Of a stretch of 64,000 nt of DNA, positions 44,127 to 50,451 are shown piece by piece (within the stretch, counting starts at the first letter, position 1; every line of letters starts with the position of its first letter). Origin of the DNA: a virus; UHGV virus genome UHGV-1376965; one strand, 5' to 3'. The notes below the pieces were generated by a model. That model was not told the origin of the DNA and made no database searches. It saw only the letters and a program-made list of their open reading frames with translations. Both the position numbers and the translations under genes were made by a program.

Positions 44127-44756
44127 ATGAACATACCACCCAGGGCGACTAGGACTGTTTTTTGTGTCGGTAGCGGACCGTCACTCACTCGTGAGGACTG
44201 TGCTGCTATAGAAAAAACTGGCTGTTCAATCATCGCGGTTAACAATTCCTGGCAGATGTTCGATGACATTTATGCCTTATACGCCGGTGATTTGTCATGG
44301 TGGAAGCAATACGGATCCACCATACCGGGAGGGAGATTCCGCAAAGTGACAGCCAACCTGGCGGCGGCGAAATCATTTTCGTTGGAGTACAGGCGATATT
44401 GTGGACCGGCGGAAGGGGTAAATAGCGGCGCGCAGGCTATCAGTCTGGCTGCTGAATCAGGGGCTGAAGTAGTGGTATTAGTCGGCTATGACTGTTCTCT
44501 GCAAAACGGCCTTCATTGGCATGGCGCGCACCCTCAAGCACTACGGAATCCAACGCAGGTGTCTATTTCAAAATGGCAACAGCAGTTCCTGGATACCCGC
44601 AAAAAACACGCAGATTTACATATTTTGAATGCAAGTAGGAGCAGTGCAATTCAATGTTTCCCAAGAATAAATTTAGAGGCAGTGATCGCGTTATTATCGT
44701 CGGCAGTGGCCCAAGCGCCGCAAACTTTGTTGCGCCGCGCGGAGTGCCGATTATAG
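44127..44756 (+). CDS. DUF115/MptE-like protein (GSGPS motif), paralog 1
   Basis: VFCVGSGPS ... IIAVN; 3' end overlaps the next paralog in another frame, so the end is uncertain. Confidence 0.45.
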   Translation: MNIPPRATRTVFCVGSGPSLTREDCAAIEKTGCSIIAVNNSWQMFDDIYALYAGDLSWWKQYGSTIPGGRFRKVTANLAAAKSFSLEYRRYCGPAEGVNSGAQAISLAAESGAEVVVLVGYDCSLQNGLHWHGAHPQALRNPTQVSISKWQQQFLDTRKKHADLHILNASRSSAIQCFPRINLEAVIALLSSAVAQAPQTLLRRAECRL

Positions 44757-45280
44757 CGGTAAATGGGGCCATCGACTGGCTTAACCGCGCTTCTTATTTT
44801 TTCACCCTTGATCCATCCCCAGACAATATGCGGCGCGTTGGTCGTGGCCGCCGTCGCCGTGGTGTTTGTTATTGCATGGCACTACCCGATGTTAAAGAAC
44901 GTGAAGTCAGAGATGGCGTTCTGTGCTTCCGTCGTGTGGCTGAACGCGGCATGGAGCCAAAAAATACGAATTCTCCCGAGTGGTGGGCGTGGCGCTGGTC
45001 CGCACATTTCGGCCTTTGCGAAGATGAGAATGAAATTGCCAGCGGCAATAGTGCATATGGTGCTCTGAACCTGGCTTTCCATATCGGATTCAAACATGTA
45101 GCTCTGGTGGGCGTTGACGCTACGCAAGAACTACGCGTTCACTCCGGCGGCACGCCAAAAAATCTAAGTCACCTGCCTTTGTTATTCCAGTCTGCGCGTG
45201 AACAGATTGACGTTGTTTCATGCGGGAAAATGGGAGGTATTCCGCAGATGACTCTTAAAGAATGGCTGAAGAATACATGA
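44654..45280 (+). CDS. DUF115/MptE-like protein, paralog 2
   Basis: AGGAG ribosome-binding site; VIIVGSGPS ... IIAVNGA ... ALVGVDA. Confidence 0.55.
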
Positions 45281-45954
45281 TGGCACCCACAATTTATCAC
45301 CGTATCGACGGTACCAAATACAGGAATGTCTGGGTTGTTGGTGATCTGCATGGTTGCTACACCAGACTGATGTCCGAACTCCATCGTGTGGATTTTGACC
45401 CGGCGCAGGATTTACTGATATCGGTCGGCGACCTTATCGATCGCGGTACTGAAAATGTCGAATGTCTGGAACTATTGCAGATGCCCTGGTTCAGGGCAGT
45501 GATGGGGAACCATGAGCGGCTGATGATTGATGCGTTAAGTCCAGATGGCAACGTGAATAACTGGCTAATGAATGGCGGACAATGGTTCTTCATGCTGGAC
45601 ACTGATCAGGAAATATTAGCCTGGGCGCTGGTGGAGCTGGTAAAGCGTCTGCCCTACATCATTGAGTTGAACACGGGGCAAGAAACTATCGTTATAGCCC
45701 ATGCCGACTATCCGGATAATGAATACCAATTCGGTAAGGAGGTGCCGCTTTTCAACGTTGTCTGGGCGCGCGAGCGTATCAGTGATTCGATGGATGATAT
45801 TGGTGGCGAAATTTCGGGCGCAGATCGTTTTATCTTTGGTCACACTCCGGTGAAAAGCCCGAAGACATTCTGGAATCAGCAGTATATCGACACTGGTGCC
45901 GTATTTTGCGGAAACCTGACATTGATGAAAGTGAAAGGTGATGGTGCAGCATGA
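45277..45954 (+). CDS. ppp: Ser/Thr protein phosphatase, lambda-PPase family
   Basis: GDLHG, GDLIDRG and GNHE metallophosphatase motifs; ATGA overlap with the upstream stop. Confidence 0.85.
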
Positions 45955-46652
45955 AGATTGCTTTAGTTTTTCGCTCTGGTGGTGACTATAACGCTTCCGA
46001 TGTGCAGTGGCTGGTTAATCAACTGCCAAAAGACTATGAAATTATTTGCCTGACAGACCTGAAGTGTTTACATGTACCTGGCGTCAAAGTTATCCCATTG
46101 ATCAACCAGTGGCAAAAGTGCCGTGGCTGGTGGGCGAAAATCGAGTTGTTCCGACCGGATATAACCGATGATCTGTTCTATCTGGATTTGGACACGGTTA
46201 TTGCCGGTGATATACGCCCAATCCTAGAGCATCCACCAACCAGCTTCACCATGCTTAGGGATTTTTACCATCCACAATATCGTGGCAGCGGTGCCCTGTG
46301 GATACCAAATAGTGTTAAAGCGCATATCTGGAGTTCATTCTGGCAAGATCCGGAAGGTTGGATTTCTCGTTGTGTCACTACTGAGTGCTGGGGTGACCAG
46401 GGGTTCTTACGAAAGGTTATGGGCGATGATACACCAGCATTTCAGGATCTGTATCCAGGATGGTTTGTAAGTTACAAGGCCGATGTTGTGGAACCTGGTT
46501 CAAAATATGCGAGCGCGCGTTACTCCAGGGGGAATGGGGCATTACCAAAAGACTGCCGAATAATCTTTTTCCACGGCAAACCGCGACCTCGCGAAGTGTC
46601 AGAGGATTGGCTTCCCCTTATCAGCTCATTTTTTGAGCGAGAATCAGAATAA
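45951..46652 (+). CDS. Nucleotide-sugar transferase-like protein (DxD motif)
   Basis: 233 aa; [11 protein letters not shown]; ATGA overlap with the phosphatase stop. Confidence 0.5.
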
Positions 46653-46653
46653 T

Positions 46654-46720
46654 ATTGCTCTAATAATTCCATATTTTTAAAACGTGATGTACACTCATCA
46701 CGTTTTTTATTAGAGCAATC
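46654..46720. promoter_or_regulatory. Inverted pair of C1-operator-like sites flanking a rho-independent terminator hairpin
   Basis: ATTGCTCTAATAA at 46654 and its reverse complement TTATTAGAGCAAT at 46707 bracket AACGTGATGTACACTCATCACGTTTTTT. Confidence 0.6.
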
Positions 46721-48795: not shown

Positions 48796-48811
48796 TTGCT
48801 CTAATAAATCT
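48795..48811 (+). promoter_or_regulatory. C1-operator-like 17-mer
   Basis: ATTGCTCTAATAAATCT, 16 of 17. Confidence 0.65.
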
Positions 48812-48990
48812 TGATTTTTAAAACAGAGAAAGTGAAAATAAAAACATGCCGCAAGGCGCGGCATGTATCCAATCAATCACAGGAGCTGAAAATATGAACA
48901 CGGCATTCAAAATCATTATGGCCGCGATCTATTTCTGGCTGTTCTCTATCACTTTTGGCGGCATCGTCGCGCATGGGTAAAGGGGGATGC

Positions 48991-49569
48991 ATGAAAGGCG
49001 AAGTGAAAGAGCGCGGCATGATTTTCAACGATGAGATGGTCCGGGCAATTCTTGGTGGGAATAAAACACAGACTCGCAGGATTGTTGAAGAAAAATTCTA
49101 TGGACGGGCAGTGGCCGTAGAGTTGCTTGCTAAGCATTGTCCATATGGTCAACCGGGCGATCGTATTTGGGTTCGCGAAACCTACCGGGTACATGGCAAA
49201 GCGACGGACGTCGCAACGCTGGTTTATCGCGCAAGCGTGCGTAACTCCTGGACAGAACAAACGCACCGGGTTCCGGTCGAGGTTTGTAATAAACCAGTAT
49301 CAGAAAAGTGGACGCCATCAATTCACATGCCGCGCTGGGCTTCGCGTATTTTGCTGGAAATTACCGACGTGCGTGTGGAACGGCTGCATGACATGAGCGA
49401 GGCAGATGCTAAAGCGGAAGGCGCATCTCCGGCGACGTACAAGATTACACCGCCGGAAGCTGTTTATCGCGTTGGTTTCGGTGATATCTGGCGCGGTATT
49501 TACGGGCAAGAGAACTGGCTATCTAACCCGTGGGTATGGGTAATCGAGTTTAAGCGCATTCAGGAATAA
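48991..49569 (+). CDS. ASCH-domain protein
   Basis: AGGGGG ribosome-binding site; N-terminal MIFNDEMVRAILGGNKTQTRR matches the ASCH GxKTxTxR signature. Confidence 0.6.
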   Translation: MKGEVKERGMIFNDEMVRAILGGNKTQTRRIVEEKFYGRAVAVELLAKHCPYGQPGDRIWVRETYRVHGKATDVATLVYRASVRNSWTEQTHRVPVEVCNKPVSEKWTPSIHMPRWASRILLEITDVRVERLHDMSEADAKAEGASPATYKITPPEAVYRVGFGDIWRGIYGQENWLSNPWVWVIEFKRIQE

Positions 49570-49572
49570 ACC

Positions 49573-50451
49573 GTGAGTATGCATCAAGTTGTCAGCTTTT
49601 CAGGTGGACGAACATCGGCTTATCTCGTTCATCTGATGGAAGCAAAGCGAAAAGCTGGCGCTAGCGTCCATTTCATTTTTATGGATACCGGCTGTGAACA
49701 TCCTCTGACGTATCGCTTTATTCGTGAGGTTGTGAAGTTCTGGAACGTACCGCTAACGGTGTTGCAGGTCGATATAAATCCAGAACTTGGGCAGCCAAAT
49801 GGTTATACGGAATGGGAACCAAAGGATATTCAGACGCGAATGCCGGTGCTTAAACCGTTTATGGACATGGTTAAAAAGTACGGTACGCCATACATCGGCG
49901 GCGCGTTCTGTACTGACAGGCTAAAACTCACCCCTTTCACGAAATATTGCGATGACCATTTTGGGCGAGGGAATTACATCACATGGCTGGGTATTCGTGC
50001 GGACGAACACCGCAGGCTGAAACCGAAACCGGGCGTCCGGTATCTTGCAGAGCTGTCAGATTTTGATAAGTCGGATGTTATCCGGTGGTGGCGAAAACAA
50101 CCTTTTGATTTGCAAATCCCGGAGCACCTAGGGAACTGTGTTTTTTGCATCAAAAAGTCAACGCAAAAGCTGGGGCTTGCATGTAAAGACGAACCTGGTC
50201 TGATGCGGGTTTTTAATGAACTGGTTACAGGTAAACACGTCCGGGATGGTCACCGAAAGACAAATAAAGACGTTATGTACCGTGGTCATCTGAGCCTTGA
50301 CGGGATTGCCAGAATGTATGCCGACAGCGACTACAGAAATTTGTATCAGGCGATGGTGCAAGCCAGGCGATTCGATACCGGCTCGTGTTCAGAGTCATGT
50401 GAAATCTGGGGTGATCAATTGGAGTTGAAATTCGAAGAGGTGGTGGCATGA
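49573..50451 (+). CDS. PAPS reductase / PP-loop ATP pyrophosphatase family protein
   Basis: 292 aa; PP-loop-like SFSGGRTS near the N-terminus; several Cys near the C-terminus. Confidence 0.7.
   Translation: MSMHQVVSFSGGRTSAYLVHLMEAKRKAGASVHFIFMDTGCEHPLTYRFIREVVKFWNVPLTVLQVDINPELGQPNGYTEWEPKDIQTRMPVLKPFMDMVKKYGTPYIGGAFCTDRLKLTPFTKYCDDHFGRGNYITWLGIRADEHRRLKPKPGVRYLAELSDFDKSDVIRWWRKQPFDLQIPEHLGNCVFCIKKSTQKLGLACKDEPGLMRVFNELVTGKHVRDGHRKTNKDVMYRGHLSLDGIARMYADSDYRNLYQAMVQARRFDTGSCSESCEIWGDQLELKFEEVVA

Follow-up and report, generated by a model that had tools for sequence, protein, structure and literature searches.

The window analysed here, a stretch of 64,000 nucleotides from the virus genome UHGV-1376965, belongs to a P1-type phage-plasmid, and between positions 44127 and 50451 it contains the accessory region running from pmgN to pap, followed by the beginning of the hypervariable region. 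All the ORFs listed for this span exist and have annotated counterparts in P1 (AF234172) and P7 (AF503408), and the DNA is 98-99% identical to P1 until window position ~49046 and to P7 until ~49425. The identity of the eight genes grouped by the initial annotation as an accessory cluster is established: they are pmgO, pmgP, ppp, pmgQ, pmgS, pap, an ASCH-like gene and an orthologue of lambda NinC, and all of them lie on the plus strand, as do pmgN and pmgR. Their accessory nature was borne out as well. The pmgN-pap region was already known in P1 and is mostly dispensable, pmgO, pmgP, ppp, pmgQ, pmgS, pap and pmgT being non-essential both by deletion and by CRISPRi (table in PMC10695390, which cites PMC9024508 for these genes), and on laboratory E. 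coli no plaque phenotype was seen for the P1 knockouts (PMC10695390 and PMC9024508).

These genes had been proposed to form one pathway, but they are distributed over about four transcription units. C1 operators and two terminator hairpins delimit these units, boundaries that are established as sequence features, and we conclude that the span holds several independent units. A scan with the C1 17-mer consensus allowing up to three mismatches gave 10 matches in the window against 0.34 expected. The C1 operators noticed in the cluster are real, but there are three inside the span instead of two: OpmgRa/Op86a (46654..46670, plus strand, three mismatches), OpmgRb/Op86b (46703..46719, minus strand, found by the consensus scan) and OpmgT/Op88 (48795..48811, plus strand, one mismatch), all of them annotated in P1 and P7. 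The first unit, pmgN-pmgO-pmgP-ppp-pmgQ, is C1-repressed and therefore switched on in lytic development; the site that would control it is a weaker operator-like sequence (CATGCACTAATTAATTT, 43937..43953, minus strand, four mismatches) located upstream of pmgN at the position of P1 Oppp/Op83, where both P1 and P7 annotate an operator. Its likely terminator is a hairpin followed by a T-run (46679..46711, plus strand; 11-bp stem, RNAfold -13.4 kcal/mol) that is seen in the sequence, overlaps the second operator and was absent from the output of a simple terminator scan. The top-listed plus-strand site of that scan was a strong hairpin resembling an intrinsic terminator and located between pmgS and pap (48236..48264, plus strand; 11 pairs then T7, RNAfold -18.1 kcal/mol). 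As for the ATGA overlaps described for the cluster, those of ppp/pmgQ and of the NinC-like gene with ead were found, while that of pmgP/ppp requires ppp to start at codon six.

The first gene of unit 1, pmgN (43964..44152), is an ORF annotated in P1 that encodes a small protein (phrog_2350) and scored as essential in CRISPRi and as non-essential when deleted (PMC10695390). It is followed by pmgO (44094..44756), of which position 44127, the start chosen in the initial annotation, is an internal ATG, and by pmgP (44654..45280), both annotated in P1 and P7. Next, ppp (45262..45954) lies between pmgP and pmgQ (45951..46652) in P1-type phages and encodes a NinI-type Ser/Thr metallophosphatase (Pfam Metallophos 9e-16; 65% identity to lambda NinI), in agreement with the lambda-type phosphatase that had been predicted. 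Unit 2 comprises pmgR and pmgS. PmgR (46734..46952, an ORF annotated in P1) is morphogenetic, as its deletion leaves heads and tails unjoined and is complemented in trans (PMC9024508). The non-essential pmgS (46954..48216; phrog_1660) encodes the expected 420-aa coiled-coil protein, whose weak matches are all of the coiled-coil type; P1-type loci retain it, as does L003, a distant P1-like element, whereas L005 (a lambdoid prophage of Citrobacter rodentium) and L006 (a podophage-like contig) lack it. The pap gene (48289..48795) stands alone 3' of the strong terminator. In line with its annotation as HAD phosphatase-like, it encodes a polynucleotide-kinase-phosphatase-type HAD phosphatase that stands by itself, without the kinase domain (Pfam HAD_PNKP 4.5e-12, 46.7 bits vs a cutoff of 27.6; motif I VDIDGT), with a weak PDB match to Pnkp1 (4xrp) and no specific similarity to KdsC.

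The operator at 48795..48811 heads the hypervariable downstream unit, in which the ASCH-like, NinC-like and Ead/Ea22 genes are exchangeable lambdoid-type cargo. The ASCH-like gene (48991..49569) belongs to an ORF open from 48955, its true start being probably 48991 judging from P0091 and P7, and most of it corresponds to P7 Upf86.8. The gene stood, but its ASCH label was the weak point of the annotation, with a Pfam E of 0.023 (15.8 bits vs a cutoff of 21.2) and a match at E<=0.01 in only 4 of 27 family members; this protein family is very large in phages and prophages (43,262 clusters at E<=0.001), and 49 of 74 P1-like contigs carry the gene. The PAPS-reductase-like assignment of the NinC-like gene (49573..50451) was solid (Pfam PAPS_reduct, 36.9 bits vs a cutoff of 22.5; 80% identity to lambda NinC). 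Its product has a PP-loop, SFSGGRTS, and weak similarity to the DndC and TilS models. The gene, whose DNA is ~90% identical to that of Stx and lambdoid phages and which only 6 of 73 P1-like contigs carry, is a lambdoid-type mosaic insert. Both genes are within the mosaic region where P1, P7 and UHGV-1376965 diverge, and P1 lacks the pair, having pmgT, pmgU and pmgV in its place.

PmgO and PmgP are distant paralogues with the Maf/MptE/Cst-I fold, as anticipated when they were described as two paralogous GSGPS-motif proteins with a DUF115/MptE-like fold. When their families were compared with hhalign, the probability was 97.8% (E 1.3e-12 over 162 columns), and the iterated HMMs of both arrive at the same 47 ORFs; by direct BLASTP, the alignment is restricted to the motif region (E 0.003), and the Pfam scores of both proteins fall under the MptE-like cutoff. 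In structure searches the Maf glycosyltransferase was the top match with the longest alignment, and GT42 and GT29 sialyltransferases also matched. The Maf chain has 632 residues and includes extra substrate-binding domains, whereas PmgO and PmgP have ~200 aa and lack them. PmgO can be considered a putative, WaaZ/Maf/Cst-like CMP-ulosonic-acid (Kdo-type) transferase. PmgQ, noted previously as a DxD transferase-like protein, is a GT8-like retaining GT-A glycosyltransferase in which D79-L-D81 and H208 are invariant among homologues. Its AF2 model (pLDDT 94.5) matched GT8 enzymes in Foldseek, among them AgtA (6mw5, 3e-8), GlyE, WbbM, glycogenin and LgtC; the PmgQ profile retrieved 6mw5 from the PDB at 5.4e-7, and the Q-family HMM matched WaaJ at 6e-6 and WaaO at 4e-4.

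The only co-inherited unit in the span is pmgO, pmgP and pmgQ. A glycan-modification unit, one of the roles suggested for the whole cluster, is present but limited to these three genes. Unrelated phages conserve them together and carry fused versions. In fact, they adjoin one another in L003, L005 and L006, and by our own count from the locus table ~37 of 80 loci anchored on PmgQ, each set in different bacterial species, have an O/P-type gene beside or near pmgQ. An O/P-type gene was also found in 20 of 29 non-P1 viral contigs, and PmgQ relatives are encoded on at least 577 viral contigs. Furthermore, there are three independent fusions, joining O to P in L006 and Q to an O/P-type protein in two other loci (L148 and L236), and the modules of L005, L006, L093 and L132 include an additional, GT-A-like fourth gene. 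In other phages the module is found within late regions, by genes for lysis, the terminase or the portal. LPS would not be expected in the lineages of a few Q or O/P-Q loci (L115 and L121 in Saccharibacteria, L151 in Paceibacterota). Between pmgP and pmgQ, ppp is absent in L003, L005 and L006, the three other phages examined in detail, and it is missing from the module in all but one (L184) of the 29 non-P1 viral loci; it is thus merely resident in the operon of P1-type phages and not part of the conserved module.

Several observations connect this module with the LPS core. WaaZ activity is, to our knowledge, known through genetics and mass spectrometry rather than from purified enzyme. The third Kdo of the LPS core requires this transferase (PMC6358824). 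Judging from profile comparisons, PmgO and PmgP are homologous to E. coli WaaZ: an O/P HMM built from short phage-type members only scored K-12 WaaZ at 38 bits (E 9e-13), against <=0 for other waa-region proteins and <=2.5 bits for 500 shuffled WaaZ sequences. PmgO orthologues alone reach WaaZ weakly (11.9 bits; hhalign probability 12%), and WaaZ itself is a sub-threshold MptE-like protein. In a chromosomal waa operon of Pectobacterium (L087; waaQ-waaG-waaP-Ept-waaO-like-[WaaZ-like]-[PmgQ-like]-GT25), a WaaZ homologue (BLASTP 7e-15 vs K-12 WaaZ) adjoins a PmgQ homologue that is 48% identical to the L005 protein, and PmgQ homologues adjoin waaL in Erwinia and Rosenbergiella. Moreover, L003 carries kdsB, encoding CMP-Kdo synthetase, in the same block (TIGR00466, 270 bits vs a cutoff of 155), a linkage seen in one lineage only (L003 and L004); viral contigs were also searched for close relatives of kdsB, and no such gene was found. 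Maf-family enzymes are able to transfer Kdo from CMP-Kdo (bioRxiv 10.1101/2020.06.03.131540).

Because pmgO, pmgP and pmgQ are related to bacterial enzymes that build the LPS core, their products most likely remodel a cell-surface glycan. The explanation that we favour, with about even confidence, is a phage-borne CMP-Kdo-type glycan-building module within a multi-unit span, probably acting on the LPS core in lytic growth; its donor sugars, acceptor and biological pay-off are what we infer here. The three genes would constitute a mobile three-enzyme module inside unit 1. PmgO and PmgP would be two diverged WaaZ/Maf/Cst-type transferases, probably acting as a pair on a CMP-activated ulosonic acid, most likely the CMP-Kdo made by every enterobacterial host, and PmgQ would be a GT8-type retaining hexosyltransferase with UDP-hexose as the probable donor. 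The trio would extend a glycolipid acceptor that faces the cytoplasm, most likely the LPS core, with a short branch of Kdo and hexose.

The same enzymes could instead glycosylate proteins, either those of the phage virion or one on the host surface, attaching a Maf-style O-linked ulosonic acid to Ser/Thr that the GT8 enzyme extends. Maf enzymes do attach Kdo or Neu5Ac to Ser/Thr (bioRxiv 10.1101/2020.06.03.131540), three of the GT8 enzymes matched by PmgQ (AgtA, GlyE and glycogenin) glycosylate proteins, some carriers belong to the lineages without LPS, and in P1 the module is expressed only once C1 repression is lifted. Its location amid late, structural or lysis genes in several phages fits virion-protein modification as well as, or better than, classical lysogenic conversion of LPS. 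However, PmgO and PmgP lack the extra domains of Maf, are homologous to WaaZ and have chromosomal homologues in waa and waaL contexts, and the P1 knockouts plaque normally, so that we regard protein targets as rather unlikely. It is very improbable that PmgO and PmgP are MptE/thiamine-pyrophosphokinase-like diphosphokinases making a small phosphorylated metabolite, with PmgQ working on a different substrate: their best structural match is Maf, together with the sialyltransferases, and the close synteny with a GT8 enzyme and the fusions to it, the WaaZ homology and waa-operon placement, and kdsB in the L003 block all argue against it.

The single pathway of the initial annotation, in which all eight genes modify nucleic acids (or glycans) to protect phage DNA/RNA or counter defences, would find some support in the resemblance of Pap to polynucleotide 3'-phosphatase domains, the PP-loop and DndC/TilS similarity of the NinC-like protein, the weakly supported ASCH assignment, and the common strand and C1 control. 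We consider it improbable given the intervening terminators and separate units, and the finding of O-P-Q in other phages without the remaining genes. The nucleic-acid part of the idea depends on exactly the two genes that are not conserved among P1-like contigs and that P1 lacks, and NinC and NinI are dispensable genes of the lambda nin region. No link to anti-defence was found in our analysis; in PMC9024508, 29 genes of P1 were knocked out singly, and the 24 knockouts that plaqued without defect were also unchanged in anti-restriction activity. A role in virion assembly, suggested by the historical names ("putative morphogenetic function"; "head morphogenesis" and "sheath" in P7), by the true requirement for pmgR in head-tail joining (PMC9024508) and by a late promoter upstream of pmgL, is highly improbable for the cluster in view of the enzymatic folds and the dispensability of its genes by deletion and CRISPRi. 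PmgC and PmgG were the only members of the pmg set detected in virions (PMC9024508), and virion assembly is largely refuted for all genes except pmgR.

Returning to glycan building on the LPS core, the pay-off for the phage would be a surface or receptor that is altered during and after infection, a plausible one since the P1 receptor is in the LPS core. If the LPS is altered, LPS-dependent competitor phages could be excluded, or fewer progeny would be lost on cell debris.

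Over about 6.5 kb, the DNA around the span is 98-99% identical to P1, P7, SJ46, RCS47 and their relatives, and because its ORFs also correspond one-to-one with annotated P1 and P7 genes, the window can be assigned to a P1-type phage-plasmid. The genes all lie on the plus strand, in the order pmgN (43964-44152), pmgO (44094-44756), pmgP (44654-45280), ppp (45262-45954), pmgQ (45951-46652), pmgR (46734-46952), pmgS (46954-48216) and pap (48289-48795), identified by ORF and P1/P7 annotation, followed by an ORF for an ASCH-like protein (48991-49569) and a NinC-like (PP-loop) gene (49573-50451) with a ~90% match to Stx and lambdoid phages. 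DNA identity extends to window position ~49046 with P1 and ~49425 with P7/SJ46, and the region downstream of pap recurs in many P1-like plasmids in related, patchy forms. From these comparisons, the span is the pmgN-pap accessory block together with the start of a mosaic, hypervariable block. Rfam and tRNA scans gave no match within the span; elsewhere in the window (11637-11842, 33281-33434 and 35435-35510) are known P1 features: the antisense RNA C4 and its targets a1/b1, as well as three tRNA genes, for Asn, Thr and Met.

The initial annotation had treated this stretch as one cluster with ATGA couplings and two C1-operator-like sites. Scanning the window with the 17-bp asymmetric consensus ATTGCTCTAATAAATTT, allowing up to 3 mismatches, returned 10 matches to operators of the P1 repressor C1 against 0.34 expected, and those at 46654, 46703 and 48795 fall on Op86a, Op86b and Op88 as annotated in P1/P7, whereas a weaker fourth match falls just upstream of the span at the position of Oppp, the operator upstream of pmgN. 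Such sites are therefore present far above chance, but there are three of them within the span rather than two. The ATGA overlaps are genuine at ppp/pmgQ and at the NinC-like gene/ead. However, a single operon is contradicted by a hairpin with a T-run (46679-46711, -13.4 kcal/mol) inside the Op86a/Op86b pair that separates pmgQ from pmgR, by a strong terminator-like hairpin (48236-48264, 11 bp, -18.1 kcal/mol) in the gap between pmgS and pap, and by Op88, which stands at the head of the unit downstream of pap.

Some neighbouring features can be mentioned here. Directly upstream of the span, pmgM (43352-43930, +) has a sub-threshold match to the VRR-NUC nuclease family (E 3e-4), and both pmgM and pmgL are kept in a distant relative, the P1-like element L003. 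Between Op88 and the ASCH-like gene, a 28-codon hydrophobic ORF (48894-48980, +; MNTAFKIIMAAIYFWLFSITFGGIVAHG) preceded by an AGGAG ribosome-binding site could encode a small membrane peptide. Three successive genes at 50448-52919 (+) comprise an Ead/Ea22 gene, one without a significant Pfam match and a second Ead/Ea22 gene, the first two having a near-identical internal segment in common (…PATDAFLAE[I/V]RA…); they are typical lambdoid early-region cargo in a P1 backbone.

Among 80 P1-type viral contigs, the genes from pmgN through pap are kept in at least 92-93% of those extending to that point; 49 of 74 have the ASCH-like gene and 6 of 73 the NinC-like gene, where P1 has pmgT, pmgU and pmgV instead. 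This patchy co-conservation argues against the single eight-gene pathway that had been proposed. Published genetics agree with an accessory role: pmgO, pmgP, ppp, pmgQ, pmgS, pap and pmgT are dispensable by CRISPRi (PMC10695390) and also in a deletion survey, as it is cited in that paper. An anti-defence role, also put forward at first, is disfavoured by single-gene knockouts of P1, 24 of 29 of which lacked a plaquing defect and left anti-restriction activity unchanged; in the same work pmgR was essential, its loss leaving heads and tails unjoined (PMC9024508). In lambda, NinC and NinI are both dispensable.

Several of the individual labels of the initial annotation were borne out. Ppp scores 59.3 bits against the Pfam Metallophos cutoff of 21.5 and is 65% identical to lambda NinI across 218 aa, as befits a lambda-type phosphatase, and it is a NinI orthologue embedded in a P1 operon. 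PmgS yields coiled-coil-type matches only and is a lineage-specific coiled-coil protein. Pap is HAD phosphatase-like, with 46.7 bits for HAD_PNKP (cutoff 27.6) and the HAD motif I VDIDGT at residues 18-23, but it has no kinase domain and is therefore not a full polynucleotide kinase-phosphatase; it is a lone PNKP-type HAD phosphatase, with a weak match to Pnkp1. A role as Kdo-8-P phosphatase was considered and dropped because Pap and its L003 homologue share only the generic HAD motif with KdsC. In L003 (9846-11892), genes for a 271-aa protein, a bona fide kdsB and a pap homologue are joined by 4-nt overlaps, which suggests, only as a lead, that Pap may act with sugar-nucleotide metabolism in that element; the 271-aa protein showed no similarity to KdsD.

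The ASCH label stands less firmly, as the protein reaches 15.8 bits (E 0.023) against a Pfam ASCH cutoff of 21.2 bits its profile found no match among PDB sequences, and only 4 of 27 relatives reach Pfam ASCH at E<=0.01. Its family is very large, with 43,262 clusters (50% identity) at E<=0.001, and the protein and its relatives (P0091-P0240) display an invariant K-x-Q-T-R-R motif; sequence searches with this family gave neither a Pfam match above cutoff nor a relative of solved structure. The NinC-like protein has the PP-loop SFSGGRTS, 80% identity with lambda NinC and 36.9 bits for PAPS_reduct (cutoff 22.5) over residues 6-72 only, so that it is indeed PAPS-reductase-like, which does not imply reductase activity. 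Ppp and the PP-loop protein thus recall NinI and NinC of the lambda nin region, but here such genes are scattered in a P1 backbone and belong to two different C1-controlled units. The ASCH-like and NinC-like genes are swappable cargo. We found nothing that connects ppp, pmgS, pap or these two genes with the glycan module or with one another, and the part of the cluster outside PmgO, PmgP and PmgQ is ordinary mosaic phage cargo. Of the nucleic-acid or glycan modification pathway first envisaged, what remains is a glycan-type unit made up of PmgO-PmgP-PmgQ alone; the terminators and the patchy ASCH-like and NinC-like genes speak against one pathway for all eight genes.

PmgO and PmgP both contain the V/I-G-S-G-P-S motif, the only part that pairwise BLAST aligns, and they had been described as two paralogous GSGPS proteins of a DUF115/MptE-like fold. 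They are true, distant paralogues: their family alignments match with 97.8% probability (E 1.3e-12) and their iterated HMMs end on the same 47 ORFs. Both fall below the 34.6-bit cutoff of Pfam DUF115/MptE-like (PF01973), with 23.4 and 20.9 bits, respectively, as does E. coli WaaZ (29.6 bits), whereas a fused homologue from the podophage-like contig L006 exceeds it (44.6 bits). Nevertheless, their 3D fold is common to the solved Maf and MptE structures, although Pfam and profile scores stay under the family thresholds in the comparison with Maf and with the GT42 enzymes Cst-I/Cst-II. The fold alone does not distinguish a transferase from a pyrophosphokinase; the context does. Regarding PmgQ, the DxD transferase-like label is supported by a structural model (pLDDT 94.5) predicting a GT-A fold with a DxD metal site and a downstream His, which matches the GT8 proteins AgtA, GlyE, WbbM, glycogenin and LgtC (Foldseek E 3e-8 to 1e-6). 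Its family profile finds AgtA in the PDB at 5.4e-7, and D79, D81 and H208 are invariant among 27 homologues. The GT-A fold, DxD and conserved His are those of GT8 enzymes (LgtC, WaaJ/WaaO, AgtA, GlyE and glycogenin), but TM-scores are only ~0.55-0.6 and PmgQ is compact (233 aa), forms a widespread family of its own and has no Pfam match at E<=0.1, Glyco_transf_8 (PF01501) included. Single-sequence PDB searches with PmgO, PmgQ, the ASCH-like protein and PmgS returned nothing useful, and the folds and distant matches came instead from profiles and models; an NCBIfam search assigned none of PmgO, PmgP, PmgQ, Pap and the ASCH-like protein to a family.

For PmgO-PmgP-PmgQ the analysis shows homology and fold as well as synteny, fusion and genomic context, and we consider it probable that this is a glycosyltransferase module. 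The first module loci were reached by tracing distant PmgO homologues back to their contigs. In the distant P1-like element L003/L004 the three genes are adjacent with no ppp in between; in a Citrobacter rodentium lambdoid prophage (L005) they are accompanied by a fourth gene and flanked by lysis genes and terminase; and in L006 a fused O+P gene (376 aa) is followed by Q and by a GT-A-like fourth gene. A PmgQ-anchored scan with one genome per species gave 80 loci in many mostly Gram-negative lineages, and in ~37 of them (hand count of the table) a gene of the common PmgO/PmgP family adjoins or lies near Q. PmgQ alone recovered only near-identical P1-type contigs from the viral set, but with an alignment headed by a non-P1 sequence as the query the scan widened to at least 577 viral contigs encoding PmgQ relatives, with an O/P gene beside Q in 20 of the 29 non-P1 viral loci. 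Domain mapping revealed three independent fusions, O+P in L006 and Q+O/P in L148 and L236, and the contexts checked with Pfam were either prophages (L132, L133 and L098, carrying genes for terminase, portal, capsid and Rz) or glycan clusters. Apparent archaeal carriage of PmgQ (L160) was discarded, since that locus includes a tape-measure gene and is therefore a phage contig. In the Nitratireductor prophage L133, a Methyltransf_24 gene (6609-7184) that follows the O/P-Q pair within the structural gene block may provide a sugar methylation step. Five alphaproteobacterial loci (L137, L140, L143, L146 and L147; ~5000-7400) contain PmgQ paralogues in tandem arrays of three, without an O/P-type gene, so this GT8-like family also expands alone. 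In the window itself, dbn (37161-38159, +), just downstream of the DnaB-like helicase gene ban, has sub-threshold GT-B Glycos_transf_1 matches (E 1.5e-5) and would therefore be a fourth glycosyltransferase-like gene in the phage, ~6 kb from pmgO/P/Q.

A connection with the LPS core emerged from WaaZ. An HMM built from 37 short phage-type O/P proteins, with the WaaZ-like protein left out, scores E. coli WaaZ at 38.1 bits (E 9e-13), compared with <=0 bits for 13 other waa-region proteins and <=2.5 bits for 500 shuffled WaaZ sequences; PmgO orthologues alone give 11.9 bits (hhalign E 0.0024). These values show homology between PmgO/PmgP and WaaZ, with which they have in common the N-terminal SGP(S/T), IAVNG and G-x-D motifs, although PmgO and PmgP are shorter (~200 aa vs 283), are two diverged and sometimes fused paralogues, are phage-borne and C1-repressed, and the conserved HWHG motif of PmgO does not align to WaaZ. 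WaaZ, an LPS-core enzyme of E. coli K-12/R2, has relatives among the outer-core Kdo transferases, for example Klebsiella WabI. In Pectobacterium (L087), a PmgQ homologue directly follows a 310-aa MptE-like protein, which matches E. coli K-12 WaaZ by BLASTP (7e-15), within the operon waaQ-waaG-waaP-(sulfatase-family, Ept-like)-waaO-like-[MptE-like]-[PmgQ-like]-GT25, so that homologues of WaaZ and PmgQ stand as a pair in this operon. In an Opitutales genome, a PmgQ homologue adjoins a WaaZ-like gene together with GT90 and GT4 genes, and in Erwinia and Rosenbergiella (L088 5983-7880, L091 5896-7924, L092 5938-7880) it accompanies a WaaL-type O-antigen ligase, at sites that belong to no full waa cluster and lack an O/P-type gene nearby. 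The pmgO/P/Q genes of the window lie on a phage-plasmid, and only chromosomal homologues (L087 and partly L136, L088, L091 and L092) are in waa/waaL contexts. The Q-family HMM matches the GT8 core enzymes WaaJ and WaaO weakly; WaaS was also compared and showed no relationship. Furthermore, the L003 kdsB (encoding CMP-Kdo synthetase, with 270 bits where the cutoff is 155) lies within the gene block of the module and overlaps the start of the pap homologue, and a search of viral contigs for its close relatives found none. In K-12, WaaZ is described as the Kdo transferase on which the third inner-core Kdo depends, and this glycoform accompanies loss of the terminal outer-core disaccharide (PMC6358824). 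Maf-family enzymes are able to transfer Kdo from CMP-Kdo (bioRxiv 10.1101/2020.06.03.131540).

The donor, acceptor and benefit we infer as follows. With C1 no longer repressing the unit, PmgO and PmgP, probably acting together, would transfer a CMP-activated ulosonic acid, most likely Kdo, and PmgQ would add a hexose from a UDP-sugar, building a short LPS-core branch on the cytoplasmic side of the inner membrane. The LPS core is where the P1 receptor is located, so a plausible benefit would be a changed receptor landscape. We give this explanation as a whole about an even chance, and the LPS core as acceptor is, on its own, a tentative assignment that falls a little short of even. Its main competitor is protein glycosylation of the Maf type, which would fit the position of the module among late or structural genes in several phages and also the rare carriers that belong to lineages without LPS; the DUF115 Maf enzymes are flagellin nonulosonic-acid glycosyltransferases about three times larger than PmgO/PmgP, and we regard this alternative as unlikely. 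It is quite improbable, in our opinion, that the module uses host CMP-Kdo to place a Kdo-containing glycan on virion proteins or another non-LPS macromolecule, which would be a previously unrecognised phage-encoded Kdo glycosylation serving particle stability, host-range change or evasion of recognition.

Phage systems that alter surface glycans, such as Gtr glucosylation, O-acetylases and the serotype conversion by phage D3, act on the O-antigen, mostly from the periplasm, and lysogens express them. The PmgO/P/Q module would be like them phage cargo that alters host LPS and hence phage receptors, but its enzymes look like those of core assembly in the cytoplasm, and in the P1 lysogen it is kept repressed. 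The genes and operators have long been annotated, phage cargo modifying host LPS is of a known kind, and PHROG labels already hint at 'sialyltransferase' and 'glycosyltransferase'; what would be new is a core-assembly-type WaaZ-like plus GT8 module repressed in the lysogen. In the literature open to our searches we found no paper giving a function for these genes and nothing functional on MptE-like or DUF115 proteins in phages; a paper on a Gifsy prophage defence gene (PMC12724215) concerns an ATPase-domain protein and is not pertinent.

The cluster as first described is mostly ordinary, and the embedded PmgO/P/Q module is moderately interesting and directly testable. P1 is among the most used phages in genetics. 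Three of its genes would gain a specific, testable function as a WaaZ-like pair and a GT8 enzyme, in a module spread over at least 577 viral contigs as well as numerous Proteobacteria and further lineages, most of them Gram-negative. The pmg accessory genes have reportedly kept placeholder names since the P1 genome annotation of Lobocka et al. The module would also be a way into the study of WaaZ-type enzymes, on which, as far as we know, there is little biochemistry. Should there be no detectable effect on LPS, the protein-glycosylation alternative would be still more unusual. If the LPS core is remodelled, this would be phage-borne editing of a structure that serves P1 and many other phages as receptor, at the level of core assembly, unlike the known O-antigen conversions.
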